Positions 7,234 through 61,039 of a stretch of 64,000 nt of DNA are shown here, piece by piece. The stretch comes from a virus (Duplodnaviria; Caudoviricetes), in IMG/VR virus record IMGVR_UViG_3300033463_000080, positions 15,253-79,252 of that record; one strand, written 5' to 3'. Position 1 is the stretch's first letter. The number at the start of each line of letters is the position of its first letter. The notes under the pieces were generated by a model. The model was not told where the DNA came from and did not search any database. It saw only the letters and a list, made by a program, of their open reading frames with translations. Made by a program: the position numbers and the translations under genes.

Positions 7234-7593
7234 ATGCCAGTGGTAAGAACGATTGAATGGTGGCGCGGAACGGCAACGCATATGTGGCGTACATACTTTG
7301 CCCTTCAGCGCGACGGGTTTAACTGGGAGAAACTCTCCCTTCCGGATCAGCGTATCTACGCTGTCTGTCACCATGTGTTCCTCAGCAAGTTTATCAAGAC
7401 AGACCAGGATATTCTCCAGTACTACTTCACATCACGCTGGGGCGACGACATCTATGCCGTGGAAGACTATTCCCTGAAGCATGGTATCCCAATCAAGGTC
7501 ATCTGGATGGTGATCCGACGTGCAAACCGCGCTGTGATGGAAGAAGTCGGGTTCCTGGAACGAAAGGAGGATGATGATAATGAATCGGTATGA
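7234..7593 (+). CDS. Hypothetical protein (possible late regulator)
   Basis: AAGGAGGTG RBS; helical C-terminus. Confidence 0.5.
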   Translation: MPVVRTIEWWRGTATHMWRTYFALQRDGFNWEKLSLPDQRIYAVCHHVFLSKFIKTDQDILQYYFTSRWGDDIYAVEDYSLKHGIPIKVIWMVIRRANRAVMEEVGFLERKEDDDNESV

Positions 7594-8917
7594 TGTAATC
7601 AATCACTTCGCAACCATTCGCGGGTACAAGTCATTCCTGGAGATCGGTACGCTGAACGGCGAAACATTCCGCGCAGTAAAATGCCCGCATAAAGTCTCCG
7701 TGGATCCTGTGCCACGCACAAACCCTACCTACTGCATGACATCCGATGAGTTCTTTAAAACGAACAAAGAAACTTTCGATATCGTGTTCATTGACGGCCT
7801 TCACGAGTGTAACCAGGTGTGGCGCGACATCACTAACGCCCTGAAATCACTCAACCCTGGCGGAGTCATCGTCATGCACGATTGCCACCCCACATCGGAA
7901 CGGATGCAGGAACATCACACAGAGTCCCAGTACGGGTACGACTGGACCGGCGATGTCTGGAAAGCATTCGTCAAGGCACGCGCTGAACTCCCATATGAAC
8001 TGTACGTCCTCGACCATGACATGGGATGCGGTATTATTGATACCACTAAACCAAAGACTACCGACACTTCATCTTACCCGACAGACATGGATCACCTGAA
8101 CTACGGTCACTTCCTCGCTCATCCGGACTGGTTTAACTTCCGCCGTACATTCCTTCCGGAACGGATCGCAGTCTACTGCGCCACACGCAATCTCTACCAC
8201 CAGATGGCAACCGTTTCTAAATCTCTCATCGCAAACAACGGAGCAGATCGCGTCATCTTCATCACAGAGGACGATGAGTTCCCTGAAAAACTTCCGCCCT
8301 GTATCTCTACGCTAAACCTCTCCGGTCAAACATTTTTCCCACCGTCCGGACCAAACTATAAGTCCGCATGGACATGGATGGTCATGATCCGCGTCGCATT
8401 CACCAAGCTTTTCCCATACCTCGACCGTGTACTGTCCCTTGACTGCGATATGATCGTCAATCATCCGCTCGATGAGATCTGGAATACCCAATTCGGTAAC
8501 GCTTACTTCGCACTCGTCCGTGAACCGGACTGGTTCTGGAAAACTGCACCGTTTGAATACCATAAGGTTCCGTACTTCAATTTCGGTTTGTCTTTCCAGA
8601 ACCTCAACAAACTACGCAAGGATAAGATGGATGACTGGATCATCTATGCCTTAAACAACCGCAAGACGCGCTTCCCTGAACAGGATATCGTTAACCAGCT
8701 ATGCAACGGACAAATCAAAGAACTCCCTGAACACCTCAATACCATGCTTCAGTTCCACAAGGACATCAATCCGACTGAACCAACGATCCTTCACTACGCA
8801 GCGATGCAATGGAAAATGCTCCAGTCAGACGAGTATAAGAAGTACGAGAAGATGTCATGGGATGAAGCGCTGAAACGGCGCGATACTATCCAGAACGGAG
8901 GCGAGAATAATGGATGA
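7580..8917 (+). CDS. Class I SAM methyltransferase fused to GT8-family glycosyltransferase
   Basis: N-terminal FLEIG, FDIVFIDGLH, PGGVIVMHD; C-terminal SLDCDMIV (DxD), YFNFG, FPEQDIVN, ILHYA. Confidence 0.8.
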   Translation: MNRYDVINHFATIRGYKSFLEIGTLNGETFRAVKCPHKVSVDPVPRTNPTYCMTSDEFFKTNKETFDIVFIDGLHECNQVWRDITNALKSLNPGGVIVMHDCHPTSERMQEHHTESQYGYDWTGDVWKAFVKARAELPYELYVLDHDMGCGIIDTTKPKTTDTSSYPTDMDHLNYGHFLAHPDWFNFRRTFLPERIAVYCATRNLYHQMATVSKSLIANNGADRVIFITEDDEFPEKLPPCISTLNLSGQTFFPPSGPNYKSAWTWMVMIRVAFTKLFPYLDRVLSLDCDMIVNHPLDEIWNTQFGNAYFALVREPDWFWKTAPFEYHKVPYFNFGLSFQNLNKLRKDKMDDWIIYALNNRKTRFPEQDIVNQLCNGQIKELPEHLNTMLQFHKDINPTEPTILHYAAMQWKMLQSDEYKKYEKMSWDEALKRRDTIQNGGENNG

Positions 8918-9904: not shown

Positions 9905-9952
9905 AGGCACAAAAAAAGACCCGCCCAGGCCGAAGCCTGAGCGGGCGGGTAG
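9905..9952 (-). terminator. Intrinsic terminator ending the minus-strand accessory operon
   Basis: Minus strand GCCCGCTCAGGC-TTCG-GCCTGGGCGGGT followed by CTTTTTTT. Confidence 0.8.
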
Positions 9953-9967
9953 GGTAACGGAGCGGAA

Positions 9968-10360
9968 TCAAAAGTCGGTGATCTCTTCCAGACAGAACGG
10001 ATCGTTCGGGTTGGTGGTGTTGTCGATGACGGCGATCAGCGTATCAGGGTAGGCATTGCGCTGCTTCCTGGCCATGGTTTTTGCTTCTTCCAGGCTATAG
10101 CTGCCGGTTCCCCAGTCGTCTTCGCGGTTTGTTTGGACGGCGTACCAGAGGCGCGGAGCGGGATCGTCGTCCAGGGTGATGTCCTCGACGACGTCTTCCG
10201 GGGCGTAGATGACGTGCAGTTCGCCATCCAGGTCGTTGGCCTTGTTCTGCATGGCGAATTCGAAGTCTTCGTATTCGCCGGTCGGGTCAGAGATGTTCTT
10301 CCGGATCAGGTGGATGCCGTCGTTGGCCTCGATGACTGCGGTGTACAGGGTCTTTTCCAT
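9968..10360 (-). CDS. Acidic small protein (anti-defence candidate)
   Basis: GGAGG RBS; very D/E-rich; WYAVQ..DDWGTGSYSLEEA motif. Confidence 0.7.
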   Translation of the reverse strand: MEKTLYTAVIEANDGIHLIRKNISDPTGEYEDFEFAMQNKANDLDGELHVIYAPEDVVEDITLDDDPAPRLWYAVQTNREDDWGTGSYSLEEAKTMARKQRNAYPDTLIAVIDNTTNPNDPFCLEEITDF

Positions 10361-10363
10361 GGG

Positions 10364-10576
10364 TTAGTCCTCCTTCTTGTTGTCGATGATAAGAATCTTT
10401 TTAAACTCCGTGGATAGGTCTGCCCGGATCAGCTGTCGGATGTAGTCCTGCTTTGACGGAACGGATGAAAGCTTTTCGATCACGTCGGCGTCGGTCCGGT
10501 TATTGAACTTGAACGTGTAAAATGTGCAGTTTGCGCTGTCGTACTTTCGCTGCGCTATGGTGTGGTTGTTCGGCAT
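10364..10576 (-). CDS. Small ribbon-helix-helix-like DNA-binding protein
   Basis: YTFKFNNRTDADVIEKLSSVPSKQDYIRQLIRAD strand-helix-helix pattern; first gene after a promoter. Confidence 0.6.
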   Translation of the reverse strand: MPNNHTIAQRKYDSANCTFYTFKFNNRTDADVIEKLSSVPSKQDYIRQLIRADLSTEFKKILIIDNKKED

Positions 10577-10606
10577 GGTCAGTCCTCCTTGAATAGGTAT
10601 GGACTT

Positions 10607-10635
10607 ATCATACCACCGGAACGATCCGGAATCAA
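10607..10635 (-). promoter_or_regulatory. Internal sigma-A promoter P3
   Basis: TTGATT-17 bp-TATGAT with extended TG; spacer contains CCGGA/TCCGG inverted repeat. Confidence 0.7.
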
Positions 10636-10907
10636 GATGTCACCTCCTTCGCTGCCCGGACTTCATCCGGGTAGTTTTCCTTCATGAAGTCGATGTAGTT
10701 GTCGGCGTCGTTGTCGATCTGGGATTCAAACATGTCCCAGTCGAAGCATCCGTCTTCGTCGGTGGCATCGATGACGGCGTTGTCGTGGCATTCATCCATC
10801 CAGTCTTCCGGACGGATGCCTGTTTCATGTTCGATGCGGTCAAGCGCCTTGCGGACGATGCCTGTTGTGGATCCGTATCCGATGCGGATGATAGCTTTTT
10901 TGTCCAT
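10632..10907 (-). CDS. Acidic hypothetical protein
   Basis: AAGGAGG RBS; D/E-rich. Confidence 0.7.
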   Translation of the reverse strand: MDKKAIIRIGYGSTTGIVRKALDRIEHETGIRPEDWMDECHDNAVIDATDEDGCFDWDMFESQIDNDADNYIDFMKENYPDEVRAAKEVTS

Positions 10908-10921
10908 GAGGGACCTCCTTC

Positions 10922-10977
10922 TCCAGCTGGTGCTGGCTACGAGAGGCGGAGGTCCGTCTCCCGGGTGCCAGGATCAG
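10922..10977 (-). repeat. Junction element, family 1, copy 1
   Basis: mRNA strand CTGATCCTGGC-inner hairpin-TAGCCAGCACCAG-CTGG; TGA is the stop of 10974..11297. Confidence 0.85.
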
Positions 10978-11297
10978 GTGGCAATTGCTTCCTTGTGACG
11001 TGTCTTCAGAACGGACGTGTCGTTTCCCGGACGTTCGTAGTGGAACGGATAGTCGACTGTGACGAACCATTCGTCATCTTTCAGCTGGATCTCGTGGATG
11101 TAACTGTTCTGGATGATGTACATTGTGTGTCCATCCACTTCGTCGTCCGATGTGCAGGTGAGATATGCCCATCCTTTTCCGATGGAAAACCAGTTGATTG
11201 TGTAGTTGATTTTTCTGGTGTCGTTGATGTCCGCCCTGCACCAGTAGCGGAACGTGCGGCCTTTCCACCAGGCCAGCGGCCGGTCCTTCAGCTTCAT
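10974..11297 (-). CDS. Hypothetical protein
   Basis: AGGAGAGG RBS; stop inside junction element. Confidence 0.7.
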   Translation of the reverse strand: MKLKDRPLAWWKGRTFRYWCRADINDTRKINYTINWFSIGKGWAYLTCTSDDEVDGHTMYIIQNSYIHEIQLKDDEWFVTVDYPFHYERPGNDTSVLKTRHKEAIAT

Positions 11298-11299
11298 GC

Positions 11300-11794
11300 T
11301 CAATCCTCTCCTTTCGTCACCCAGCCGATGCGGGCCAGGTCTTTGTCGGACGGTTCCCAGTACTCGTCGTACTCGTCCGTGTCTGGATTGTACTTCGCAA
11401 CGTATGCGCTGCAGTTGTAGATCATGTAGTCCCAATCAATGATCTGATCTTCGGTCGGTCCTTCCGGATCCCACTCTTCAGATTGCTGCCACATCCAATT
11501 AAGCAGCAGGTCAAGCGTATCCTGCTTCGCCTGGGCAAAGGATACGGAATGGAAACCGTCGCAGCAATCATCGCTGCTCCAGATGACACTCCATGTATCG
11601 CGCTTGATCGGCTTGCGCTTGCTGATCGCGATGATCGCGTTCGCAACGTCGATGTACGGAAACTGCATGCCGTCAGGGTATCCATGTTTCAAATCGGATA
11701 TGATCTGTTCTCCGTCGGTTGTGCCATAGGTGTACTCATCGCATCCGTGTTCCGCCAGGACGGAACGTGCATAATCTTTGACTTCCTTGCGCAT
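11300..11794 (-). CDS. Acidic hypothetical protein
   Basis: GGAGG RBS downstream of junction element. Confidence 0.7.
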   Translation of the reverse strand: MRKEVKDYARSVLAEHGCDEYTYGTTDGEQIISDLKHGYPDGMQFPYIDVANAIIAISKRKPIKRDTWSVIWSSDDCCDGFHSVSFAQAKQDTLDLLLNWMWQQSEEWDPEGPTEDQIIDWDYMIYNCSAYVAKYNPDTDEYDEYWEPSDKDLARIGWVTKGED

Positions 11795-11812
11795 GTTATG
11801 TCCTCCGTTTCT

Positions 11813-11868
11813 CCGGTACTGGTACCGGCTACGAGGTCTCCGGCGGAGGCCCCGTGTGCCGAGATCAG
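11813..11868 (-). repeat. Junction element, family 1, copy 2
   Basis: CTGATCTCGGC-inner hairpin-TAGCCGGTACCAG-TACCGG; TGA is the stop of 11865..12014. Confidence 0.85.
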
Positions 11869-12014
11869 GCAGGAACGATTGCGATGATGTCTGCCAGCGC
11901 GATTACTCTGCATTCATCCAGGATGATGTATCCTGGTTTCAGCGTGGCCGGTTCGATCTTGTTTGCGTAGAGGATGCGAGGCAGGTCGTTGCCTCCGACG
12001 GTGATGATCTTCAT
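11865..12014 (-). CDS. 49-aa hypothetical protein (MKIITVGGNDLPRIL...), absent from the ORF track
   Basis: TAATG overlap with upstream stop; AAGGGAG RBS. Confidence 0.6.
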   Translation of the reverse strand: MKIITVGGNDLPRILYANKIEPATLKPGYIILDECRVIALADIIAIVPA

Positions 12015-12556
12015 TACTCATCTCTCCCTTCAAAATCCAGTCCGTACTCACGGACGTTGTCGCAGTAGTCCCGGTATTCCTGCTCCATCCAACGCTTGTT
12101 CTCCAGGATCGGGCCTACGAGTTCCGCCAGGTCGATCTTCACCGGATCGGAGCGGATGTCCCATACTTCCATGTTGTCCATATATCCGCATTCCCGGTCG
12201 GTTTCGTACAACTCCGCGATCTTTCTCCCGGTCTCGATACTGGCGGAGGTTTCACCGTCGATGGTAACCTTCAGCAGGTATTCCCGGTTCGGTCGTTCGC
12301 GTTCTTCCTTTTCGCGTTTTGCCCGGGCCTTGTCCTCTGTTACGCAGTAGTTCCACACAAGCAGCATGGTTGCCGGATCGTTCAGTCCGCCGATCAGCGG
12401 TTCATCAGGATCCTGGAATTCCTGCATGCCTTCGATCTGGGTCTTTGCGTCGTCCAGATTGGTCATCAGTTCCAGTTCGTCGAGATCGGCGTATGCGTTG
12501 TACTGGAAAATTACCTCGATCTCTTCGGCCAAAGCGGCCTTCATCTTCTCTGTCAT
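12014..12556 (-). CDS. Acidic hypothetical protein
   Basis: GGAGG RBS; ATGA overlap. Confidence 0.7.
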   Translation of the reverse strand: MTEKMKAALAEEIEVIFQYNAYADLDELELMTNLDDAKTQIEGMQEFQDPDEPLIGGLNDPATMLLVWNYCVTEDKARAKREKEERERPNREYLLKVTIDGETSASIETGRKIAELYETDRECGYMDNMEVWDIRSDPVKIDLAELVGPILENKRWMEQEYRDYCDNVREYGLDFEGRDE

Positions 12557-12876
12557 TGTTGATCTCCTCCATCTCTTGTCCATATAATTTCCGTGCCATC
12601 GGAGAACATGTCCAGTACCGAACGGGGGCGTCCTACTTCCATTATGTCGAACATTGAATCGTATTTTGTGTCTAAGTCTTCAAATGTCTGTGTCCTAACA
12701 AATTCCATTGCCTCGTTGTATTCGGACAAGTCCACCCAGTTTGTTATTTTCCTGTTTTTGTTGATAAGAATGGCGATGTCCTTGTACCCGTCAATGCTCG
12801 TATTCTTCATGACGGCGTATTGCCGACCGGTTCTAAGCTTTATGACCATTCCAGTCTTCAGATCTGATATGTTCAT
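12553..12876 (-). CDS. Hypothetical protein
   Basis: MNISDLKTGMVIKLRTG N-terminus common in phage proteins; RBS. Confidence 0.7.
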   Translation of the reverse strand: MNISDLKTGMVIKLRTGRQYAVMKNTSIDGYKDIAILINKNRKITNWVDLSEYNEAMEFVRTQTFEDLDTKYDSMFDIMEVGRPRSVLDMFSDGTEIIWTRDGGDQQ

Positions 12877-13151
12877 GCTTTTCCTCCTTTCCATTCGTCG
12901 CACAGCTTTTTCCATTCCCCGTTTGCAATGTAGTTGCTGATAAAGTCGAGCGCATCTACGAGCGACGTGACTTTTCCGATGCACTTCCTGCAGTTCGTGG
13001 GCCAGAGATCGTCTCCGATCCATTTGTGTCCTTTCTGGTAGATTAAAATCGTTCCGCCATTTTCAGAACTAATTCTCAGGATGCCTTCGATCTTGACGCT
13101 TCCGCAGTCAATGTTCAGGACCTTCGTGGTCTTCTGCCTGTTCGCTTCCAT
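12873..13151 (-). CDS. Hypothetical protein
   Basis: AAGGAGG RBS after junction element. Confidence 0.7.
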   Translation of the reverse strand: MEANRQKTTKVLNIDCGSVKIEGILRISSENGGTILIYQKGHKWIGDDLWPTNCRKCIGKVTSLVDALDFISNYIANGEWKKLCDEWKGGKA

Positions 13152-13166
13152 ACTCTTCCTCCTTCT

Positions 13167-13223
13167 TCAGCGTCTGGCGCTGACTACGGGATCCCCGGTG
13201 GAGGTCCCGTGTGTCAATGTCAG
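13167..13223 (-). repeat. Junction element, family 1, copy 3
   Basis: CTGACATTGAC-inner hairpin-TAGTCAGCGCCAG-ACGCTGA; TGA is the stop of 13220..13381. Confidence 0.85.
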
Positions 13224-13381
13224 ATGTTCCCGCAGTCGAAGTCGTTCTGGATGTCGCACAGTTCACAGTAGAGACGTTCGCCGGCGTCGCCGGCGTCTCC
13301 GGAACCGTCGTCCTCTTCGTAGTGCGTAAGCGCAGCGCACAACCGGTCGTAGAGGTTATCGAGTCTTGTCTTATCGTCCAT
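13220..13381 (-). CDS. Small acidic hypothetical protein
   Basis: AAGGAGG RBS; MDDKTRLDNL... Confidence 0.6.
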   Translation of the reverse strand: MDDKTRLDNLYDRLCAALTHYEEDDGSGDAGDAGERLYCELCDIQNDFDCGNI

Positions 13382-13394
13382 GCTGATCCTCCTT

Positions 13395-13664
13395 TCAGTA
13401 CCAGTATTCGTCTGGCATGTATTCCAGTTCGTATGCTCCGTCGTTGTCCGGGCCGGTCTCTTCCCAGTTGTTGATGATGTCCATGAGCAGCAGGTCCGGG
13501 GACAGGTCTCCTTCGCCGGTCGTACTGTCGAAGATGACCGTGCTGGTGCCTTCTCCGCCGCAGGACAGGTTCCCGTGTTCGTCGAGAATGTCCGGAGCGG
13601 GTACGTATCGGATAATCCGCAGATGGTCATCCGGGTGGGCGTCGATCCAGTCGTAGATTTTCAT
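13395..13664 (-). CDS. Acidic hypothetical protein
   Basis: AAGGAGG RBS; MKIYDWIDAHPDD... Confidence 0.7.
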   Translation of the reverse strand: MKIYDWIDAHPDDHLRIIRYVPAPDILDEHGNLSCGGEGTSTVIFDSTTGEGDLSPDLLLMDIINNWEETGPDNDGAYELEYMPDEYWY

Positions 13665-13678
13665 GTTGTGTTTCCTCC

Positions 13679-14434
13679 TTACATTGCCGCCACACAGGCG
13701 GAGGTTGTCCACCAGTTCAGCAGGTAGTCTACCGTTTCATCCGGGTACTTGTAGATGAACAGCTTGCTCAGATCTGCGCCGTCCCGGAGGTACCCGTAGC
13801 CTTTGCCCTCCCGTTTTGGATCTGGGAGCATCTCGCAGCCGGGAGCGTCGATCAGATACCGGGACTGCTGTTTCGTTGCTGTCCGGAGTCCAAGGACTGT
13901 GCTGAAGTTGCACTTCAGAACGGTCGGGATGGTGATCGCAAGCACGTTTTGTGTGCATGCGATGACGTGGACCCGGGCCGCGCGGCCAACCTGAGCCAGA
14001 CGCTGCAGCAGCGGCAGGGCCGCTTTCTTCTGCGTCGTCATCAAGTCTGCCAGTTCGTCGATGATGACGTACATGTGCGATCCGTCGTACTCTTTCGCTC
14101 CGAACGACTGCATGGCGGAAAACCGCCGGTCTGTTTCGTCGCATGCCCATTGCAGCGCGCGGATCATGTCTGCCGGTTCGGACGCATACTTCGCTACGTG
14201 CGGAAGGCGGCTGTATTCCACCAGTTCGACCTTTTTCGGATCGATCAGAACGAACTCGCACCGGAACGGGGACTGCGTATACAATAGGGAAGTGATGATC
14301 CCGTTCACGGCAACGGACTTTCCGGAGCCGGTCGCACCCGCGATCAGCAGATGCGGCCGGTCGGCAAGGTCGAGGAACGGCCGGTAAACGGAACCGGCAG
14401 GTGTCCTGTACGTGCGAGGGATGGCGTGCAGCAT
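13679..14434 (-). CDS. Stand-alone FtsK/SpoIIIE-family ATPase domain
   Basis: PHLLIAGATGSGKS Walker A, LIDPKKVEL, YVIIDELADLM Walker B, GRAARVHVIACTQ. Confidence 0.9.
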   Translation of the reverse strand: MLHAIPRTYRTPAGSVYRPFLDLADRPHLLIAGATGSGKSVAVNGIITSLLYTQSPFRCEFVLIDPKKVELVEYSRLPHVAKYASEPADMIRALQWACDETDRRFSAMQSFGAKEYDGSHMYVIIDELADLMTTQKKAALPLLQRLAQVGRAARVHVIACTQNVLAITIPTVLKCNFSTVLGLRTATKQQSRYLIDAPGCEMLPDPKREGKGYGYLRDGADLSKLFIYKYPDETVDYLLNWWTTSACVAAM

Positions 14435-14613
14435 TAGCACTCCTCCTTTCCGATCCAGACGATGTTCTTGGTTTCAATACGGTAGTCATTGCCTTCCGGA
14501 TCGTTGAAGTAGGCGTACTGCCCGTCGAATCCGACACCGGTTGTGTTGCACAGGTCAACTTCGACTTCGACCAGTCCGATCTCGTCGCGGTAGCAAATCT
14601 TCATCGTGTACAT
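14434..14613 (-). CDS. 59-aa hypothetical protein (MYTMKICYRDEIG...), absent from the ORF track
   Basis: GAGGAG RBS after promoter P2; TAATG coupling to the FtsK gene. Confidence 0.6.
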   Translation of the reverse strand: MYTMKICYRDEIGLVEVEVDLCNTTGVGFDGQYAYFNDPEGNDYRIETKNIVWIGKEEC

Positions 14614-14647
14614 GCTTTTCCTCCTCTCGTAGGTATTTACCTATTCT

Positions 14648-14676
14648 ATTGTAACATGGATTTTGAAATAGGTCAA
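14648..14676 (-). promoter_or_regulatory. Internal sigma-A promoter P2
   Basis: TTGACC-17 bp-TACAAT with extended TG. Confidence 0.75.
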
Positions 14677-14693
14677 TACCTGTTTTGAATTTC

Positions 14694-14750
14694 CCGATGA
14701 CTGGCATCGGCTACGAGCGACGGTGTGCGTCGCCCGGGTGTCGGTGTCAG
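14694..14750 (-). repeat. Junction element, family 1, copy 4
   Basis: CTGACACCGAC-inner hairpin-TAGCCGATGCCAG-TCATCGG; TGA is the stop of 14747..14998. Confidence 0.85.
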
Positions 14751-14998
14751 CTGTCCTTCTTTGCAGGGTTCCGGAGCGTCACGCCGCGCAGCACTTTGAT
14801 AACGGCAGCGGCGTGTCCGTTCAGCGTCAGTCCGAAGACGATGTCCTTCGCGAACTCTTCGGACATGCTCATGGCCGGTTCGCCGGCCTTCCATTCGGCC
14901 TGGTTGTGCGACGGGATCCCGGTCACGTAGCGGGCGTAGATCTCCCCGTCTTCATAAAAGAAGACACACACATGCGTTTCGAATCTCGGATTGCCCAT
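14747..14998 (-). CDS. Hypothetical protein
   Basis: GAGG RBS after junction element. Confidence 0.7.
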   Translation of the reverse strand: MGNPRFETHVCVFFYEDGEIYARYVTGIPSHNQAEWKAGEPAMSMSEEFAKDIVFGLTLNGHAAAVIKVLRGVTLRNPAKKDS

Positions 14999-15016
14999 AG
15001 ATTTTCCTCACTTTCT

Positions 15017-15073
15017 TCGCTGTCTGGCAGCGACCACGAGCGGCCAACGTGGGCCGCCCGGTGTCGGTGTCAG
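15017..15073 (-). repeat. Junction element, family 1, copy 5
   Basis: CTGACACCGAC-inner hairpin-TGGTCGCTGCCAG-ACAGCGA; TGA is the stop of 15070..15252. Confidence 0.85.
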
Positions 15074-15252
15074 AGTTCCTGATAGTACTGCACACTGGTG
15101 ATGGTGACCGGACACCATGTCGCCGGGTCAATCCCGGTGACGGAGCCGTCTTCCCAGCGGGCGTCCCACAGCATTGTGCTGACGGTCTCGCCGTCTTCAT
15201 CGATGTAGGTCACAACGGCGCGACGTGTGGTTGTGAAGTCTTTCAGTTTCAT
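15070..15252 (-). CDS. 60-aa hypothetical protein (MKLKDFTTTRR...)
   Basis: GGAGGTG RBS; ATGA overlap. Confidence 0.6.
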   Translation of the reverse strand: MKLKDFTTTRRAVVTYIDEDGETVSTMLWDARWEDGSVTGIDPATWCPVTITSVQYYQEL

Positions 15253-15641
15253 GCTTTCACCTCCGTGTTGTATTCCATCCACACCCGTCCGTGACGGATG
15301 CCTTCCGGTACCCTGAACGGTTCGATTCTCTGGATGTCGTACAGCGGGTACATGTATTTGACCTTCGTTTCGTCCTGCCAGTCGTATGGACTGCCGTCGT
15401 CGATGCCTGTCCACTTCTTGCATGCGTTCCATGCGTCCCGTGAGCGGGCGACGAGCGGGTCACCGATGGTGACCATGCAGCGTGCCAGGGGCGCGCCGTG
15501 ACCCGTCTCTGCCAGAATGACGCGCTGTCCGATCAGGCTGCGCAGCATGTTGCGCGTCCGGGTCTCGTACAGTTTTGTCAGGCGGAGGATCATGTCAACG
15601 AACGGGAACAGACGGCAGTTGATAAAGACTACCGGGATCAT
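15249..15641 (-). CDS. ASCH/PUA-like domain protein
   Basis: FVDMILRLTKLYETR resembles the ASCH I..G.K..E.R motif; GGAGGTG RBS. Confidence 0.6.
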   Translation of the reverse strand: MIPVVFINCRLFPFVDMILRLTKLYETRTRNMLRSLIGQRVILAETGHGAPLARCMVTIGDPLVARSRDAWNACKKWTGIDDGSPYDWQDETKVKYMYPLYDIQRIEPFRVPEGIRHGRVWMEYNTEVKA

Positions 15642-15910
15642 TCGTCCACCTCCCATGTCGGCCAGATCGGCCGGCTGAATTGATACGGAGCCGGGGCCGC
15701 AGCCGTCACGACGAGCGGAGCGGACTTGCTTGCTGTCCGGTATACCCGGAGCGTCCCGGCGCGGTACGGTATCCGGATGTGTGTGAAACCGCCTTCGGTG
15801 CTGAAGCTGTAGCGGATTCTGTGCGCGCGCAATGCTGCGGCGGCATCCTTCTCCGTCCGTATGCCCTTCAGAATGGAGCGGATACGGTTTGCTGTTACCA
15901 GAATGTTCAT
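15638..15910 (-). CDS. Basic hypothetical protein
   Basis: ORF downstream of junction element. Confidence 0.65.
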   Translation of the reverse strand: MNILVTANRIRSILKGIRTEKDAAAALRAHRIRYSFSTEGGFTHIRIPYRAGTLRVYRTASKSAPLVVTAAAPAPYQFSRPIWPTWEVDE

Positions 15911-15930
15911 ATTGCTTTCCCTGCCTTTCT

Positions 15931-15987
15931 CCGGTATCTGGTACCGGCTACGCTGTCCGGAGTCCGGGCAGCGGGTGCCGATGTCAG
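15931..15987 (-). repeat. Junction element, family 1, copy 6
   Basis: CTGACATCGGC-inner hairpin-TAGCCGGTACCAG-ATACCGG; TGA is the stop of 15984..16484. Confidence 0.85.
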
Positions 15988-16484
15988 CGGACGACGATCA
16001 TTCCGGACTGGATTCGTGCGCCCGGGAAATACTTCAGATACTCCCGGAGCGGCGCGTTCCTCTGGTACTGGTCCGGGCCTGTCTTGCGCCCGGTCCCGGA
16101 GCGGTCGCCTTCGTATACCGTGATGTATCCGATGCCGCCGGTCTGAGTCACGATGTGCTGAATCCATGCGGCGATACTTCCCACTTCAAGGTCGTTGTCG
16201 ATCACGTTCAGCACGTTGCTGCAGATGACCGTCATCGGTGTGTGGGTGTGCAGCGCGATCCGGACGAGTGCCAGAGTGTCCCGGTTCACCTGTTCTGGTT
16301 GATTGAACGGGTCGTATGGCAGGTATGCCAGATGCCCGGGAAGTGCTGCCCGGATGTGATCCGTATACCGTCCGCATCCCCAGTCCAGAACGACCTTCCC
16401 GGTGAAGTACGGTACCCGGCTGTATATCGCCGGGAGTCGACGGCTGTTGATTGAAGTCGCCGCGCTTGTGCATGTTTGCGCCAT
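15984..16484 (-). CDS. Small class I SAM-dependent methyltransferase
   Basis: VLDWGCG motif I, YDPF, CSNVLNVI motif-IV-like segment. Confidence 0.75.
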   Translation of the reverse strand: MAQTCTSAATSINSRRLPAIYSRVPYFTGKVVLDWGCGRYTDHIRAALPGHLAYLPYDPFNQPEQVNRDTLALVRIALHTHTPMTVICSNVLNVIDNDLEVGSIAAWIQHIVTQTGGIGYITVYEGDRSGTGRKTGPDQYQRNAPLREYLKYFPGARIQSGMIVVR

Positions 16485-16501
16485 GTTTCTTTCCTCCTTC
16501 T

Positions 16502-16560
16502 TCAGTGCGTCTGGCACTGACTACCGGCTCCGGTGTCCGGGGCCGGTCTGTCAATGTCAA
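16502..16560 (-). repeat. Junction element, family 1, copy 7
   Basis: TTGACATTGAC-inner hairpin-TAGTCAGTGCCAG-ACGCACTGA; TGA is the stop of 16557..16754. Confidence 0.85.
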
Positions 16561-16754
16561 GCTGTGCGTGCTGTCCGGTGTACGTTGCGCCATGCGGAAT
16601 GCATGTCGTATGTATCCGGAAGAATGAACGGTTCGGGCCTCCGCTGTCTGGCCTGTGCGGATTCTATCCGCTGCCTGATTCGTCTGGCATCCAGTTCCTC
16701 GACGGTCTCGGATTCGGTCAGCGACCGAATGGCCTGATTGATCATGTCCATCAT
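16557..16754 (-). CDS. Hypothetical protein
   Basis: AGGAGG RBS. Confidence 0.6.
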   Translation of the reverse strand: MMDMINQAIRSLTESETVEELDARRIRQRIESAQARQRRPEPFILPDTYDMHSAWRNVHRTARTA

Positions 16755-16780
16755 GTTTCTTTCCTCCTGCTTTTTGTTGG

Positions 16781-16853
16781 GGGACTATCGCCCCGGGACT
16801 GCCTCCGTCGGAGCGGGGACAGTACCGGGGCGGCCGCCGGAGCGGCCGCCCTT
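16781..16853 (-). repeat. Junction element, family 2, copy 1
   Basis: AAGGGCGGCCGCTCCGGCGGCCG...CGATAGTCCC, a few nt after the stop of 16859..17134. Confidence 0.8.
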
Positions 16854-16858
16854 CGTGA

Positions 16859-17134
16859 TTAGCTGATCCGGAGCGGACGAGTTACCGTCTGCGTCATGTA
16901 CGGGGCCAGGACTTCCGCCGGGAAGGCGGCCTTGACTTTCGTCGTGTCCAGGCGGTTACTCGTGACCGTCTTATATGTGACCTTGTACGGCCCGACGGTC
17001 GCGGTTTCGGTCTCGCCCATGGCGGCCTTGATTTTGTCCTGTGCGGCCTCGATGGCGGCGTCAAGTTCCTCGCGCATCCGCTTCAGTTCCTGAAGTTCCT
17101 GAATGTCCCGGATCATCATCGCATCGTTACCCAT
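16859..17134 (-). CDS. Small coiled-coil protein typical of mobile-element accessory regions
   Basis: ELKRMREELDAAIEAAQDKIKAAM...VTYKTVTSNRLDTT pattern; GGAGG RBS. Confidence 0.7.
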   Translation of the reverse strand: MGNDAMMIRDIQELQELKRMREELDAAIEAAQDKIKAAMGETETATVGPYKVTYKTVTSNRLDTTKVKAAFPAEVLAPYMTQTVTRPLRIS

Positions 17135-17158
17135 TGTTTTTTCCTCCTCTTTTTTTGT

Positions 17159-17233
17159 GGGACTATCGTCCCTGACCATCGTCCGGAGCGGACCGGGCGA
17201 CGGTCAGGGACGGCCGCCGGAGCGGCCGCCCTT
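17159..17233 (-). repeat. Junction element, family 2, copy 2
   Basis: 23 nt identical to copy 1 at the 5' end and 10 nt at the 3' end; immediately after the stop of 17235..17921. Confidence 0.8.
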
Positions 17234-17234
17234 G

Positions 17235-17921
17235 TCAATGCAGGTCGACTTCAGATGTCTCACCGAACGGGCAACCCCGGCCGGCCTTCAGACACGCTTC
17301 GCAGTTTCCGGGACATTTCCATGCGTCCGGATCGTGTTCGGTTCCGGGCATGACGCATCGGAATGTCGGCATGTTGTACGGGTTCGGGCATTCCATGCCT
17401 TCCCATATGGAAAACATGACGGACAGGTTAGCGGGCAGGTTTTCTTTTCCGTTGTCCTTCAACCACTGGTTAACCGCATAGTAGTTTTTTGTGTATGTCC
17501 AGAATATCCAGTCCGGATGATTCCGGGCGATTTTAACCATACGGTCGAAGTAGTCAGTATCCAGAATGTCCCCGGATACATGCCATCTGAAGTACTTGTG
17601 CGCCCTGCATTTTGAGATGTACCTGTCAATCTGGGCGAATGTCGCCGCCCTGTTTAGGTACATCATAGCAGTATTCTCAGCGCGCGCTATTCGTACGTTT
17701 AAGTACTGCCAACATGCTTTAATGTCGTAGCAGTACCGGACACATCCGGAGCAGTTTGCGCATGTATGGCCCGGGGCCATGCTGAAGTTATGTGTGCGGC
17801 CTATCTTCGAATTTCCTTTACTTATGTGTAACTTCAATTCGTCATAGGGTCGCGCCATAAAGCTGTCAATCAAGGCGCGCAGGGTCGCGAGGATGCGCTG
17901 TAAGGTTTCAAACATGTACAT
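17235..17921 (-). CDS. GP88-like Cys-rich phage protein
   Basis: KGNSKIG, CANCSGCVRYCY, YFRWHVSGDI, WTYTK motifs. Confidence 0.7.
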   Translation of the reverse strand: MYMFETLQRILATLRALIDSFMARPYDELKLHISKGNSKIGRTHNFSMAPGHTCANCSGCVRYCYDIKACWQYLNVRIARAENTAMMYLNRAATFAQIDRYISKCRAHKYFRWHVSGDILDTDYFDRMVKIARNHPDWIFWTYTKNYYAVNQWLKDNGKENLPANLSVMFSIWEGMECPNPYNMPTFRCVMPGTEHDPDAWKCPGNCEACLKAGRGCPFGETSEVDLH

Positions 17922-18403
17922 TTTTCATTCCACCTTTCATTTTTTGTTCGCCTTGACAGGCGTCCGGAACCTATGCATTTTTCATGGACTCCGGACGCCT
18001 GTCATGTTTTTACATGACAGGCGGAGGAAAAAAGCAGGTTTTTCTTTACGGCGTTGTTCAGCGGAATCAGCGAGACCCGTTACGTCAATCTCACAAGTTG
18101 TGAGACCGTCCCTGCTAGGGACTATGCTTTGCTTTGTCAAGGCGCTTAGCGTTGGGACTGCTCCAACGTTGCCCGCGTCGTTGTCTCCGACGCGGCCCGT
18201 CGTCGTTGCCTCCGACGGCCTTCCGCTTGTTCGTACCGTTTCCGCAACTTCTCCCGGTTAACGTTTACAGGGTTATCAGTGGCCTTCTGGCTGAGCAGCG
18301 TTTCCGCTGTCCGTTGACTCTGTCCGGCCCTGTGTCGCCTTCCGTTGTCCGTTGCGGTTAAGTTGTCAAGGTTCGTTGTCGGTCGTTCGGTTCCTTTTGA
18401 CAG
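17922..18403 (-). ncRNA. Putative ~490-nt structured non-coding leader RNA
   Basis: Lies between promoter P1 and the first RBS-led gene; multiple hairpins; 13 GGA and about 8 CAACG motifs in the 5' 300 nt. Confidence 0.5.
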
Positions 18404-24981: not shown

Positions 24982-25066
24982 ACTTGGCGGATAGGCCGAC
25001 GGGCCGAAGAGTGGAGACGCCTTACCACCTGCCGCCAAGTAACCATAAAGGCGAACTACGGAGGCG
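24982..25066 (+). ncRNA. Putative structured cis-regulatory RNA upstream of HNH gene
   Basis: ACTTGGCGG/CCGCCAAGT outer stem, two inner hairpins, loop CGCCTT complementary to downstream AAGGCG and GAGGCG (SD). Confidence 0.5.
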
Positions 25067-25072
25067 ATAGTT

Positions 25073-25627
25073 ATGGAAGAAATTTGGAAAGACATCGAAG
25101 GGTATGAGGGATTTTATCAGGTGAGTAATTTGGGGAATGTAAAAAGCTTGAATTATGCGCATCGTGGATATCAAAAAAACCTTGTCCCAAAGTGTAATAA
25201 CAGTGGCAGGCTTTGGGTTGAATTAATTAAATACGGTGCAAGAAAGCCAATGCTCATTCACAGACTTGTTGCGATGGCGTTTATTCCAAACCCATGCAAC
25301 CTTCCACAAATTAATCACAAAGATGAAAACCCCAAAAACAATGCGGTTGATAATCTGGAATGGTGTACGAATAAATATAATGTTCAGTACACGGTCGATA
25401 GGCATCCTGAATGGTTTAGACGGGGAGGCAATCCCGGAAGAGAAAGAAATAGCAAGTATCACAGAATGCCGATTAATCAGTTTGATAAAAATGGGAATTT
25501 GATAAAACAATGGGCAAATGCAAGAACGATATTTGTTCAAACTGGGATGAGTGATTGGAGCATTGCTGAGTGTTGCAGAGGAAAAAGACACACGGCATAT
25601 GGTTTCAAATGGCAATATGCCATATGA
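25073..25627 (+). CDS. NUMOD4-HNH homing endonuclease
   Basis: EIWKDIEGYEGFYQVSNLGNVKS (NUMOD4); IHRLVAMAF..INHKDENPKNNAVDNLEWC; NUMOD1-like C-terminus. Confidence 0.9.
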   Translation: MEEIWKDIEGYEGFYQVSNLGNVKSLNYAHRGYQKNLVPKCNNSGRLWVELIKYGARKPMLIHRLVAMAFIPNPCNLPQINHKDENPKNNAVDNLEWCTNKYNVQYTVDRHPEWFRRGGNPGRERNSKYHRMPINQFDKNGNLIKQWANARTIFVQTGMSDWSIAECCRGKRHTAYGFKWQYAI

Positions 25628-30762: not shown

Positions 30763-31480
30763 ATGCCCAGTGTAAAAGGTATTTCGACCTATCAGACTTA
30801 CCTGATGTACAGGACGACCACGAACGGCGACTATGCCAAGCTGATCGACATCACGTCCTTCCCGGATCTGATTCCTCCGAAGGAGAGAATCGACATCACC
30901 TCGCTGAGTGACTACATGCGTAGACTGTAATGCGCCTTTGCCCGGTAACGGGCATAGCAAACCTGTTTAATTGCCGGAAACTCTCCGCATTGATACCGGG
31001 TGCGGAGACAATCGGCAGCCAAGGCTGGAAACGGCAAGGTTCAACGACTATCCCGAAAGGGAGTACGCCGCAAGCGATTGGCGGCGGAAATGGCAGGGAT
31101 CCGGAAACGGATCGTGAGATAGTCTGATCTCCATGGCGACATGGAGCAGTCCGAAAGGACGGTTGCGGAGCAGCGACCCGCAGCGAACACAAGTGGTTTA
31201 CATCAGCGGTATCGGCGATACCTCCGAGTTCCAGTTCGGTGCGAACTACACGCCCGAGAACTATGCGAAGGTGAAGGCCCTGGAAAACAACGTCTACGGT
31301 TACGCCGTATGGTTCGGCGCGTCCGGTTCCGCAGGTTCGGAAGATCCGGACGGCCACTACGGAAAGTTCAGCTGGACCGGCGACATCTCTGCGGGTATTT
31401 CCGGCGGTGGCGTGAACGAAGCGGTTGGTATGACCATTAACTGCACGCCCAGCACGGTTGTTGTGTACAGTTCCACCTGA
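30763..31480 (+). CDS. Major tail protein, spliced: join(30763..30921,31196..31480), 147 aa
   Basis: Exon 1 ...IDITSLSDYMR joins in frame to VYISGIGDTSEFQFGANY, restoring the usual phage tail-tube motif. Confidence 0.85.
30922..31195 (+). ncRNA. Group I self-splicing intron, 274 nt, no internal ORF (IA-like, with P7.1/P7.2)
   Basis: Exon ends in U, intron ends in G; P AATTGCCGG, Q AATCGGCAGC (P4 UGCCGG/UCGGCA), R TCAACGACTA, S GAGATAGTC (P7 GACUA/UAGUC), P3, P8, P9 hairpins, P10 UGUAA/UUACA. Confidence 0.9.
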
Positions 31481-50283: not shown

Positions 50284-50487
50284 GTGGATAACCGTTGCGT
50301 ATGCTGTGGCAGGATCATCCCCGAAGGAAGAATGGTCTGCCCGATTTGCGAAACGAAACCAGTAAAGGAAGAAAGCAGATGCTTGACATCGTTGTTACCC
50401 ACTACAAAGAACCATGGGAAACGGGACGGAAATTCTTCGATATGCTCGGATGCCAGCGGGGAATCAACTTCGCTGACATCCGGGTAA
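50284..50487 (+). CDS. Small zinc-finger protein
   Basis: CVCCGRIIPEGRMVCPIC. Confidence 0.55.
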   Translation: MDNRCVCCGRIIPEGRMVCPICETKPVKEESRCLTSLLPTTKNHGKRDGNSSICSDASGESTSLTSG

Positions 50488-51332
50488 TCCTGGTTCACGA
50501 CGGGACGATGCCGTTTGAGCATGAAGTGTTCAGCCGGTATCCATACAATGTGACCCAGTACGCCATCCCGCACGGCGGCGTATCGGCCGCCAGGAACTGC
50601 GGACTCGCACACGCCACGGACACATGGATCCAGTTTTGCGACTTTGACGACATGTACACTCATGCCTACGCGCTGAAACAGATCCTCAGCGTGATGGACA
50701 AAGACGTGGACTACATGTGGACGCCATTCCACGCGGAATACATGCTTGACGGCAAACTATGCGTGAAGGACATGGACACGGAGAACGCCGTCTTTATCCA
50801 CGGCAAGTACTTCCGGCGGCAATGGCTGCTCGACAACCGCATCACCTTCCCGGTCGGTATCTCCTACAGCGAGGACAGCGCATTCTGCACCATCGTGAAC
50901 GAACTGGCAAAGCCGGACCGGCGAGGAAAGATTACAACCAAGTCGCCCGTGTACACATGGGTTTACCGGCCGGACAGCGTGAGTTCTGATCCGGAGAATA
51001 TGCAGCGGAACCTGTGCGGGTTCATCGAGCGGAACTTCTATGTCGTGGAAGAATTCAGGCGGAGAGGAATCCCCAACCGGCTGATGATCGGACGGATGTT
51101 CATGGACGCATACCACGCGTTTCATCAGGAGCGGAGGTTCCCGGAAGAGGAACAGGCTTTCGCACGGCGCGCAGGGAAGTATGCCCGGGAACTGGACGAA
51201 ATCGGCACACAGGACATGTGCAAGATATTCAACGCCGCCGGAAAGATATTCCGCAACAAAAACATGGACTACTGCGAGACGGTCGGGGAGTGGATTGCGC
51301 GGATCACCGGAAGGGAAGCTATTGCAATTTAA
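50379..51332 (+). CDS. GT2-family glycosyltransferase
   Basis: ILVHDG, HGGVSAARNCGL, QFCDFDD (DxD), YSEDSAF. Confidence 0.88.
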   Translation: MLDIVVTHYKEPWETGRKFFDMLGCQRGINFADIRVILVHDGTMPFEHEVFSRYPYNVTQYAIPHGGVSAARNCGLAHATDTWIQFCDFDDMYTHAYALKQILSVMDKDVDYMWTPFHAEYMLDGKLCVKDMDTENAVFIHGKYFRRQWLLDNRITFPVGISYSEDSAFCTIVNELAKPDRRGKITTKSPVYTWVYRPDSVSSDPENMQRNLCGFIERNFYVVEEFRRRGIPNRLMIGRMFMDAYHAFHQERRFPEEEQAFARRAGKYARELDEIGTQDMCKIFNAAGKIFRNKNMDYCETVGEWIARITGREAIAI

Positions 51333-52920: not shown

Positions 52921-54942
52921 ATGGCCGACACAGGGAAAATTATTGCCATTGTCAAGGCACTCGGAGTGGACAATGAAAGACTTGTTCACGAGGAGGCGAC
53001 CGAATGGCTGGACGAGCATATCACGAATCCGGACAGTCCGCCGCTGGACCGTTCGCTTTCGTCGTCTTCCAGCGCTGCGCCGGCGGACATGGTTGGCAGT
53101 ATAAAGAGCGCTTTGAACACGAGTGATACATTTGTTGCAAACAGATGGTATACAGGAAATACGATTGGAAGTGCTATTACAGAAACAACCACAGGAAGCA
53201 CTCAATCGTTAAGGAAAAATGTAACAGAAGGAGAAATCTATCGTATAACTTGCGAGGGTGGATCAAACGGAAGGGCATATTATCTGCTTGATAAATCAAT
53301 GAATATTGTGTCAATGGCAGATGCAAATGCAAACCTTAAAGATTATGAAATCATAATTCCGTCTGGTGTTGTTGTGATGGTTGTGCAAACGAATACGGTT
53401 TCCAAATGGACGGTAAAACTTATCGAGTCTGAAACGATAAGAAACATCGTAAATGGATTCGGTTGTAACGGAATAATATGGGAAAGCGGAGGATTTGATG
53501 CATACGGCAGAGAAAGTGCAAATAGCAAAAGAATAAGGTCAAAGACAATTTTAGTCCCGGACGGAGAAATGATTCTTGTTAAAACTGAACAGGGATATGC
53601 TTGGAATGTTGTTTGCTATGATAAATCAATGCAATATATAGATATGTTGTCAAGCTATATAAGCAACGATGTATATTGTTTACAATTATTTCAAGGGACA
53701 GTATATTTCCGTGTTCTTGTAAAGCGGACAGATGATGGAAACATTTCTGCTGCTGAAGGTTCAAATATAACTATATTTGCAAGAGGGTTAGATATTGACT
53801 CTGCAAAGCGGTCTTATGAGTTAAACATGACCGAAAAAACAGATTGGATTTCCGGAAGATTAAGTGATACAGGGAAATATTCAAGCAACAGCAAGCGGAT
53901 CATGTCACCATACTACTTTACAATGATAACAGACAGAGTGAAGTATGCCTGTGACGATGGATATGCTATCAATTATGCTGTTTATGACGAAATAAATACG
54001 GATGGAGATCTGAACGGGTCATGGTTGACCGGTGCTGGTACTATTGCTCCGAACCATAAATATATTCGGTTCATGATAAAGAAAACAGATGAGTCAGATA
54101 TAACAACGTCAGCAGCAGATCATGTTAGCATTGGGTTCATTGATTCAGAAATGATAAATGTAGGGGGAAACGATTTTTACGGAAAGAGAATCAGTTTCCT
54201 TGGAGATAGTATAACAACATTTGCTGGGGACAACCCGGAAACAGCACCTGACGGACATAAAATAGCAGACGGAACATATACCTATCTTGGAAATCATTGC
54301 CGTTATCCGCAGAACAATCTATTGACTAACGTAAATAATTGTTATTGGAAAATATTGATTGATTCTCTTGATATGGTTCTTGGTGTAAATGAATCATGGG
54401 CAGGAAGTAAAGTATCATATGGTGGGCAATATGTTGACGCTGATGATAATGCAGATGTTTGCATTTCAAGCCAAACAAGGATCAATCACTTGGGCGATAA
54501 CGGAACACCGGATGTTATTTTAGTAAATGCAGGAACAAACGATATTATTCAGAGTGCGACAGTTGGAACATTCAACACGGATAGTCCTGCCAGCTATACA
54601 GACGAACAGATTGCGGCATTGTCTGTTGCGACTTTTGCGGATGCATACAGAGCAATGCTGATTAGATTGCTGAAAACATATCCGGGTGCAGAAATCGTAT
54701 GTATGCTTCCGAACTTTACATCTGCATCATACTATTCGCCAAAGAAAGCAGATACATATTTAGAAATCATCAAAGAAGCGTGTGATTACTTTGGTGTAAA
54801 ATGGATTGATGCAAGAGCATTTGGTGTCAGTATTTATAATCTGTCTACTTATCTTGGTGACGGTGTGCATCCAAACGCTGCCGGAATGTCAAAATACGCA
54901 AATGATCTGATCAAGAAGTTCAGGTATGATGTTGCGCTGTAA
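52921..54942 (+). CDS. SGNH/GDSL hydrolase-domain protein (esterase-like)
   Basis: FLGDSIT (block I), GTND (block III), DGVHPN (block V). Confidence 0.85.
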   Translation: MADTGKIIAIVKALGVDNERLVHEEATEWLDEHITNPDSPPLDRSLSSSSSAAPADMVGSIKSALNTSDTFVANRWYTGNTIGSAITETTTGSTQSLRKNVTEGEIYRITCEGGSNGRAYYLLDKSMNIVSMADANANLKDYEIIIPSGVVVMVVQTNTVSKWTVKLIESETIRNIVNGFGCNGIIWESGGFDAYGRESANSKRIRSKTILVPDGEMILVKTEQGYAWNVVCYDKSMQYIDMLSSYISNDVYCLQLFQGTVYFRVLVKRTDDGNISAAEGSNITIFARGLDIDSAKRSYELNMTEKTDWISGRLSDTGKYSSNSKRIMSPYYFTMITDRVKYACDDGYAINYAVYDEINTDGDLNGSWLTGAGTIAPNHKYIRFMIKKTDESDITTSAADHVSIGFIDSEMINVGGNDFYGKRISFLGDSITTFAGDNPETAPDGHKIADGTYTYLGNHCRYPQNNLLTNVNNCYWKILIDSLDMVLGVNESWAGSKVSYGGQYVDADDNADVCISSQTRINHLGDNGTPDVILVNAGTNDIIQSATVGTFNTDSPASYTDEQIAALSVATFADAYRAMLIRLLKTYPGAEIVCMLPNFTSASYYSPKKADTYLEIIKEACDYFGVKWIDARAFGVSIYNLSTYLGDGVHPNAAGMSKYANDLIKKFRYDVAL

Positions 54943-60691: not shown

Positions 60692-61039
60692 ATGAATTTT
60701 GCACAGAGATTGAAGGAACTCAGGAAAGAAAAAAAGATGACATTGGAAGAAGTTGCGGAAAGCATCGGCCTTACGCGCGCAACGATCCAGCGATATGAGT
60801 CCGGAAAGATTACCAACGTTCCGTTGGAAACATACGATAAACTGGCAGCATTGTTCGATGTGTGCCGGCCGTATCTTCTCGGATGGTCGGACGACCGGCA
60901 GAAAACCATGAGCGAGGTCAGCATCCTGTCCGATAACACGATGTTTCTCCAGGCGTACAGCGCGATGACGGAAGAGGAAAGAAAATTTCTGTCTGATATT
61001 CTGATCGCGGCGTATGGAAGATACGTAGAAAAGAATTAA
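60692..61039 (+). CDS. XRE/CI-like repressor
   Basis: RLKELRKEKKMTLEEVAESIGLTRATIQRYESG. Confidence 0.9.
   Translation: MNFAQRLKELRKEKKMTLEEVAESIGLTRATIQRYESGKITNVPLETYDKLAALFDVCRPYLLGWSDDRQKTMSEVSILSDNTMFLQAYSAMTEEERKFLSDILIAAYGRYVEKN

Follow-up and report, generated by a model that had tools for sequence, protein, structure and literature searches.

The RNase III signals of phage T7 (R0.3, R0.5, R1.1 and others) are hairpins placed between cistrons, about two helical turns long and interrupted by an internal loop, and with them belong the signals of Bacillus phage SP82, in which the sequence that stabilises the message from its 5' end is a polypurine tract. Early mRNA of SP82 is cut by Bacillus subtilis RNase III (refs 19-20 as cited in PMC4838370), an enzyme whose substrates are stereotyped duplexes that carry wobble pairs in the distal box (PMC11780869), and SP82 phage mRNA was shorter-lived when its ribosome-binding site was mutated (Hue et al. 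1995, as cited in PMC7509114). Other repeated junction elements are known from quite different settings. PeSL cassettes of T4-type phages (Arbiol et al. 2010, PMC2839356) combine a strong sigma-70 promoter with a terminating stem-loop and recur as short regulatory modules among small non-essential open reading frames (ORFs), which are shuffled by recombination between copies. The SAS/ESAS repeats of Cluster K mycobacteriophages (Pope et al. 2011, PMC3203893) consist of a 13-bp GGGATAGGAGCCC box and imperfect inverted repeats with 17-bp arms around a variable spacer of 4-13 bp; they lie just upstream of many ribosome-binding sites, in one orientation and next to genes of different families, their function is unknown, and their authors found little support for hairpins. 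In the arrays of integron attC sites and in CALIN-like arrays, finally, variable small genes form cassettes that lack promoters, and each cassette closes on its 3' side with an imperfect hairpin whose base is conserved and whose centre varies. Here we describe an element that recalls each of these and belongs to none of the last three. Seven copies lie in one orientation in an uncultured phage from gut or rumen, between its small accessory genes, within a stretch of 64,000 nucleotides (hereafter the window) that comprises bases 15253-79252 of the 79,252-bp IMG/VR virus record IMGVR_UViG_3300033463_000080, a record with direct terminal repeats.

The element is a hairpin of approximately 65 bases with two alternative folds, and it runs from the stop codon of one gene to just before the ribosome-binding site of the next. 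We tentatively read it, with a probability of roughly 45%, as an element between cistrons at which mRNA is processed and stabilised, in the manner of the T7/SP82 RNase III signals, and which doubles as a homology patch for gene swapping. With the RNase III signals it shares repeated occurrence between cistrons, a conserved stem sequence and an internal loop within a helix of about two turns: each of the seven copies lies between a promoter and the terminator of the operon, spans the distance from a stop codon to the next ribosome-binding site and forms a helix of approximately 22 bp. What sets it apart from them is the stop codon built into the foot of the stem, a third segment that allows a second fold of nearly equal energy and the variable cassettes whose boundaries it marks. 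No sequence similarity to the T7 or SP82 signals is known. The modular shuffling of PeSL cassettes is also found here, in an excess of singleton genes, in swaps of context and in recombination breakpoints, whereas a promoter follows only one of the seven copies, a terminator tail follows none, the hosts are of Gram-positive type and the phages are temperate siphophages. Imperfect inverted repeats around a variable spacer, a place just upstream of ribosome-binding sites, a single orientation and neighbours of different gene families are shared with SAS/ESAS, but consensus and spacing differ (here 11-nt arms enclose a hairpin of 36-40 nt), SAS/ESAS has neither the stop-codon anchor nor the third segment, and the present hairpins show strong covariation. 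Unlike attC, the elements have no AAC/GTT core, no extrahelical bases and no integron integrase, breakpoints in them appear scattered, and they carry an extra segment at a fixed spacing to a start codon. The elements thus lack the defining features of PeSL, SAS/ESAS and attC and possess the positional and structural features of RNase III signals; what is new is the family itself, the built-in stop, the third segment and the pair of folds of equal energy.

The seven copies are here numbered e1 to e7 by position, and all lie on the minus strand. They comprise e1 (10915..10979; 68.9 bits with the covariance model described below), with the stop of a 107-aa gene at 10974-11297 and one additional loop base; e2 (11807..11870; 73.2 bits), with that of a 49-aa gene at 11865-12014; e3 (13162..13225; 78.9 bits), with that of a 53-aa gene at 13220-13381; e4 (14689..14752; 72.7 bits), with that of an 83-aa gene at 14747-14998; e5 (15012..15075; 62.6 bits, fold z -2.9), with that of a 60-aa gene at 15070-15252; e6 (15926..15989; 78.6 bits, fold z -3.3), with that of a 166-aa gene at 15984-16484; and e7 (16498..16562; 69.4 bits), whose fold reaches -30.6 kcal/mol (z -4.4). 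The last of these carries the stop of a 65-aa gene (16557-16754) and comprises arm A, the upper hairpin, arm B, CCAG and the third segment A', after which come AAGGAGG and an ATG at 16484. A first-pass annotation of the window had placed seven elements here, from 10927-10977 to 16511-16560, and a degenerate pattern derived from them, CTGGNNNNGRCYAC-N18-34-TGYCNNNRTCA, matches exactly seven times, all at those sites, where shuffled sequence would give 0.01 matches; pattern and covariance model together found no further copy in the full 79,252-bp record. The anatomy given in that annotation was borne out as well. In 7/7 copies the upstream ORF stops with the TGA that occupies element positions 2-4 (ORF ends 16557, 15984, 15070, 14747, 13220, 11865 and 10974), arms A and B pair with compensatory changes and an invariant A.C beside the stop, B pairs with A' in all seven, and the subfamilies 2/6, 3/7 and 4/5 are apparent in the alignment. 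A ribosome-binding site follows six copies, with the ATG 19-27 nt past CCAG, and the seventh, e4, is followed instead by a promoter, an arrangement kept in relatives.

In the first of its two states the element is a long imperfect hairpin of arm A on arm B below an upper stem, which is also the single structure returned by RNAalifold for the seven copies. Nine lower and 9-10 upper pairs (approximately 22 bp) surround a conserved A-S-A / U-A internal loop, and the conserved ends of the element read YUGAY ... CCAG. Across 47 copies 95.3% of cells are paired, double changes occur at 15 of the 18 pairs and the covariation score is 0.558 as opposed to 0.226 after shuffling; slid partners, used as a control in the same 47 copies, pair in 21-54% of cells. 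In 71 distinct copies outside the model-building set the values are 96.1%, 17/18 pairs and 0.546 against 0.193. The A of UGA faces the first C of CCAG in 47/47, and the internal loop and a GUAG are further conserved unpaired features. The upper stem varies freely in sequence and always keeps its pairing, with a preference for G.U at its third pair (31/47 and 58/71). Two compensatory arm types coexist in this genome, TGATC..GGC/GCC in e1 and e2 and TGACA..GAC/GTC in e3 and e7, which argues for base pairing and not for a palindromic protein operator.

The second state is formed by B and the 4-7 nt directly downstream. This B:A' hairpin is present in 125/125 copies with a mean of -8.85 kcal/mol, while permuted partners reach -4.56 +/- 0.19 kcal/mol (z = -22.5, 0/300 permutations, 35 distinct B sequences). 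A' complements B better than A does and is not a copy of A, as it offers Watson-Crick partners where A:B has a wobble or mismatch. The two states are closely balanced: mean energies are -26.2 kcal/mol with A' blocked and -24.8 kcal/mol with A blocked, the states lie within 3 kcal/mol of each other in 40/63 copies, and the second is already favoured in 15/63, among them e4 (-22.3 vs -18.4). The description of three segments and two states holds across the family. To that extent the overall interpretation in the first-pass annotation stood, and it extends to a large family, while the three functions that it suggested fared unequally, as set out below.

Both ends of the element are held in register with translation. 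TGA is the true stop in 50/63 family copies; for 12 of the remaining 13 the upstream gene stops 5-18 nt short of it, with the TGA still kept in the stem in 11/12, and the thirteenth has no called upstream gene. One copy has GGA in place of TGA, with a compensating change on the 3' arm. On the downstream side a ribosome-binding site and ATG follow CCAG in 115/125 copies at a median of 26 nt (10th-90th percentile 22-28), and a polypurine GAGAAAG comes after A'. The ribosome-binding site is mostly unpaired either way, with an accessibility of 0.72, or 0.76 when A is blocked, and that of the AUG moves from 0.66 to 0.72. Masking of the ribosome-binding site as the output of a switch was accordingly rejected, the site being open in both folds; this is what would be expected of an insulator and not of a repressor. 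Two minor observations concern the stop itself. Its context is UGA-C or UGA-U, and the UAG of the conserved GUAG lies in frame exactly 12 codons downstream in 75/110 copies (for example at 15938-15987 on the minus strand); it could be a back-up stop after readthrough of UGA, although it mainly reflects the modal spacing of 36 nt.

The family is large and absent from Rfam; the first-pass annotation likewise knew of no named family with this design. Rfam 15 at the gathering threshold gave only a group I intron and an int-alpA RNA over the whole window, both away from the elements, and a permissive scan of 10000-18000 at E<=10 gave no match on them. A blastn search with the 8-kb operon as query found no match among 50,697 records of cultured phages. 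A covariance model built from the seven window copies was then run on several sets of candidates. It found 40 further copies in contigs of a first IMG/VR scan, whose loose pattern gave mostly chance matches and hence had to be filtered by the model, 17 copies in contigs that had been binned with metagenome-assembled genomes (MAGs) of Clostridiales/Eubacteriales from rumen or gut and 74 copies in loci from a second, stricter scan; of 93 loci from a genome-collection scan 80 were run through the model, and true copies were present in four (L165, L189, L174 and L179). After de-duplication the family comprises 128 unique copies on approximately 75 contigs of uncultured viruses and MAG-binned phages. 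These counts are lower bounds, because the model missed a diverged copy at the H-O junction of L036 (CTGAC ... GGTCAGAACCAG ... GGTTCTGAAGAAGGAGG). Among 21 complete or near-complete relatives, most phages of 40-51 kb have 1-2 copies, a 79.5-kb relative has 4 and a 65-kb relative 9-10. Many relatives of 45-50 kb (G007, G010, G013, G017 and G018) carry a single copy approximately 1-4 kb from an integrase gene, in a region of small ORFs past the lysis genes that is a typical location of accessory (moron-type) genes. An attP site was considered and rejected given 7-10 copies per genome. The REP/RAYT class, GTAG-headed palindromes dispersed over a host chromosome along with a RAYT transposase, was also set aside: a GUAG precedes B:A', but in the only MAG searched (4.3 Mb, 150 of 945 candidates scored) all seven matches fell on a phage contig, RAYT itself not having been searched for. 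This is a new family of structured elements, real and well supported, and it is only its function that we infer.

Gene content between the elements varies. Related operons have a common backbone (gene families C, A, K, D, B, E, F and N) broken by differing unique ORFs, and the insertions and deletions among relatives are consistent with units of a gene plus an element. Singletons make up 70% of genes with elements on both sides, compared with 38% of genes not adjoining an element (Fisher p = 9e-4), and genes of the upstream family F34 are followed, across the element, by five different downstream partners. Where pairs share 88% identity or more, six of their 64 internal breakpoints lie inside the element window, against 1.3% expected (p = 2e-4, approximately 7-fold); those at elements lie at -5 to 0, +36, +56 and +67, positions in which homology across the element blurs the true crossover. 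Element identity between phages reaches 97%, the value found by blastn for e3 and the copy at the same position in L165, although the backbone genes are only approximately 70% identical. The upper hairpin of e2 is the commonest type of the family, with 84-94% identity to many copies in other contigs, and identical upper hairpins stand beside unrelated genes in 67/70 similar pairs; similar flanks were too few to link the variable hairpin to the gene on either side. The pattern fits homologous exchange or gene conversion at the elements.

How might such an element work? The best fit to the anatomy appears to be one of the three functions originally suggested, processing at the element followed by refolding into a hairpin that protects the 5' end. 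The elements would act in the polycistronic mRNA of the accessory operon, where they would separate translationally independent cassettes. In the first state arm A, with the upstream UGA, would pair with arm B below the 9-10-bp upper hairpin in the geometry of an RNase III signal, and an endonuclease specific for double strands, most simply host RNase III, might cut inside or close to the internal loop; the enzyme would have to come from the host, because no phage-encoded RNase III was found in the phage. The upstream message would then terminate in the upper hairpin, which would shield its 3' end, and the freed B could snap onto A' to give a new hairpin at the 5' end, directly before the polypurine tract and the strong ribosome-binding site, where it would shield the downstream message. 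Every cassette would in this way become independently stable and independently translated, and the module of 65-80 nt may also offer a homology patch for gain, loss and exchange of accessory genes, possibly under selection. Should this role be correct, it would belong to a large covariation-supported family of structured elements, with at least 125 copies on approximately 75 phage contigs, that is absent from Rfam. The design is unusual in having the upstream stop codon inside the stem, a third segment by which a second fold of equal energy can form and a constant distance to the next start codon. It would supply a testable model both of the insulation and stabilisation of accessory genes on a single transcript in temperate phages of gut and rumen Clostridia and of the exchange of these genes, and operon engineering in Gram-positive hosts would gain a small insulator part of natural origin.

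A number of findings weigh against this proposal. Action in RNA, cleavage and protection are all three inferred, and cleavage by RNase III purely so. The near-equal energies of the two states are not needed by a simple cut-and-refold model, the preference for the second state in 15/63 copies would reduce the amount of RNase III substrate, and the lower stem, which RNase III requires, would be melted by any ribosome that reaches the UGA and terminates there. Folding is more favourable on the opposite strand (-30.5 vs -25.2 kcal/mol, with the sense strand better in only 11/63), because the invariant A.C turns into G.U there, and cells with G.U only in the sense and only in the antisense strand number 28 each, in a tally of per-pair counts without pairs 6:62, 19:50 and 22:47. 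With wobble counts symmetric apart from the invariant A.C, base-pair chemistry decides for neither RNA nor single-stranded DNA. The enrichment of breakpoints is partly expected of any intergenic site, and the array is not required, as most complete relatives have only 1-2 copies. mRNA nevertheless seems the more economical reading of the structure, because of the fixed phase of stop and start codons, the preference for G.U in the upper stem and the tail of polypurine tract and ribosome-binding site.

The main rival to a processing and stabilising element is a switch actuated by the ribosome, in which a ribosome at the UGA covers A and lets B pair with A', while the long A:B hairpin forms when the upstream gene is not translated; the state would set the fate of the junction (decay, processing or re-initiation) and so link each cassette to translation of the preceding one. 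We regard this as possible but doubtful. It stays alive because the folds are nearly equal in energy, as a switch would need, and because arm A suits a terminating ribosome: UGA is the first unit of the 11-nt arm in 50/63 copies (7/7 here), and 11 nt is about the span that such a ribosome occupies and unwinds, which would leave the upper hairpin intact. A' is moreover tuned to B in 125/125. Blocking A, however, barely alters access to the ribosome-binding site (0.72 to 0.76) or the AUG (0.66 to 0.72), so that there is no obvious output, and 13/63 copies are not translated up to the UGA. Nor does a U tract follow B:A', so that it is not a trp-type attenuator. Of the ribosome-triggered switch suggested in the first-pass annotation, then, the geometry remains plausible, while classical coupling of neighbouring genes by unmasking is not supported, the ribosome-binding site being open in both states. 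A broader proposal unites the switch with gene exchange: termination at UGA would flip the element to B:A', record whether the upstream gene had been translated and so decide on cutting and protection of the mRNA, and the same element would be a standard 'plug' for foreign genes, dropped in by homologous exchange with the correct stop, insulation and start signals. This joint claim, the plug included, seems to us improbable as a whole, though if true it would amount to a natural portable expression-cassette standard for phage accessory genes. Partial terminators or attenuators that grade expression along the operon would account for stable GC-rich hairpins at gene ends, but the tail is rich in purines and lacks a run of T such as the T7 run that closes the canonical terminator of the operon, and the conserved lower-stem sequence, the internal loop and A' would be left unexplained; we think it very improbable indeed that the elements are of this kind.

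Two further alternatives start from recombination. The elements might be homology linkers only, kept for exchange between co-infecting phages in the manner of Botstein-type linkers or PeSL, with folds that have no function. The variable gene content, the breakpoints at or in elements, the identity of up to 97% amid backbones at about 70% and the identical upper hairpins next to unrelated genes (67/70) would all follow; a linker needs no pairing, yet compensatory changes occur at 15-17 of 18 pairs, the upper stem varies freely and still always pairs, and A' tracks B through 35 B sequences, so this too is unlikely. A folded single-stranded DNA site on the non-coding strand, at which a tyrosine recombinase would move ORF-plus-hairpin cassettes as in integrons, is more unlikely again. 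The fold of the opposite strand is better by about 5 kcal/mol, with G.T there in place of the invariant A.C, an imperfect hairpin closes each cassette on its 3' side, with mismatches that are fixed and a centre that varies, the indels in relatives are consistent with gene-plus-element units, and the genome encodes two tyrosine recombinases. One of these is Xer-like (55169-56269, minus strand; 202 bits with a XerA-type model, just below the cut-off) and the other (61423-62490, minus strand) resembles the single recombinase of G001 and G003; a Cro/C1-type helix-turn-helix gene lies near the latter at 60692-61039 on the plus strand. The Xer-like protein nevertheless scores only 53.8 bits on the integron-integrase model TIGR02249, whose cut-off is 265, and seems to be without a counterpart among the closest relatives: G001 has 9-10 copies of the element, but its only tyrosine-recombinase match gives 53.6 bits, compared with 126 for the Xer-like protein of the window, from which we take it to lack one. 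In two complete genomes that carry the element no tyrosine recombinase is encoded at all. RYYYAAC/GTTRRRY boxes are missing, the mismatches are 1x1 and not extrahelical bulges, the breakpoints (-5 to 0, +36, +56, +67) do not appear to mark one crossover point, and an attC site would have no use for A' or for the fixed spacing of 22-28 nt to the ATG. Of the recombination site proposed in the first-pass annotation, homologous exchange is thus supported by the variable genes and the excess of breakpoints, and an attC-like site-specific system is not.

All seven elements lie within one leftward operon, which runs from promoter P1 (18408..18436, minus strand; TTGAAA-17-TG-TATGAT) to a canonical intrinsic terminator (9909..9946, minus strand) with a 12-bp GC stem and a T7 run, a T run that the elements do not have. 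An internal promoter, P2 (14648..14676, minus strand; TTGACC-17-TG-TACAAT), lies directly past e4, where no ribosome-binding site follows, and the order of element and promoter is the same in the relatives L036 and L189. Inside cassettes the genes overlap (ATGA) or abut, and the elements sit between cassettes. A Pfam search of the 21 operon proteins gave matches only for a GP88-family protein and an FtsK/SpoIIIE-type ATPase, and no nuclease, RNA-binding protein or recombinase was recognised among them; a serine recombinase was likewise not found in the phage. A small protein of 70 aa (10364-10576, minus strand), preceded by a promoter-like site (10635-10607, minus strand), has no Pfam match and looks by eye like a ribbon-helix-helix protein. 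Its family is the most widespread near elements, with 33 members at 32 loci, often one gene past the last element. The possibility that the elements are a double-stranded DNA operator for this neighbour was rejected, because both compensatory arm types are present in one genome.

A second family of junction elements follows the first two genes of the operon, at 16755-16861 and 17135-17237 on the minus strand. It consists of two GC-rich hairpins and then a small one, GGGAC-GATA-GTCCC, which shows compensated changes in relatives; an A-rich run comes next, before a ribosome-binding site. The family is kept at the same junctions (C-to-A and A-to-H) in L036 and L189. The hairpin motif CCGCUCCGG is common to both families of junction element.

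The phage itself is siphovirus-like, with an SPP1-type portal, a capsid protein E, an ORF of 1,821 aa of the size of a tape measure and an endolysin with NlpC/P60 and PG_binding_1 domains. The two Rfam matches in the window are the group I intron (RF00028, 85 bits; 30912-31146, plus strand), which is located in the tail-gene region, and the int-alpA RNA motif (RF02996, 45 bits; 24984-25051, plus strand), which lies directly upstream of a gene for a NUMOD4 and HNH endonuclease (25073-25627, plus strand) and not of an integrase. A methyltransferase-GT8 fusion is encoded at 7574-8917, a GT2 glycosyltransferase at 50379-51332 and a large protein with a GDSL lipase/esterase domain at 52966-54942, all on the plus strand, and these three proteins may have a role in virion or cell-wall modification.

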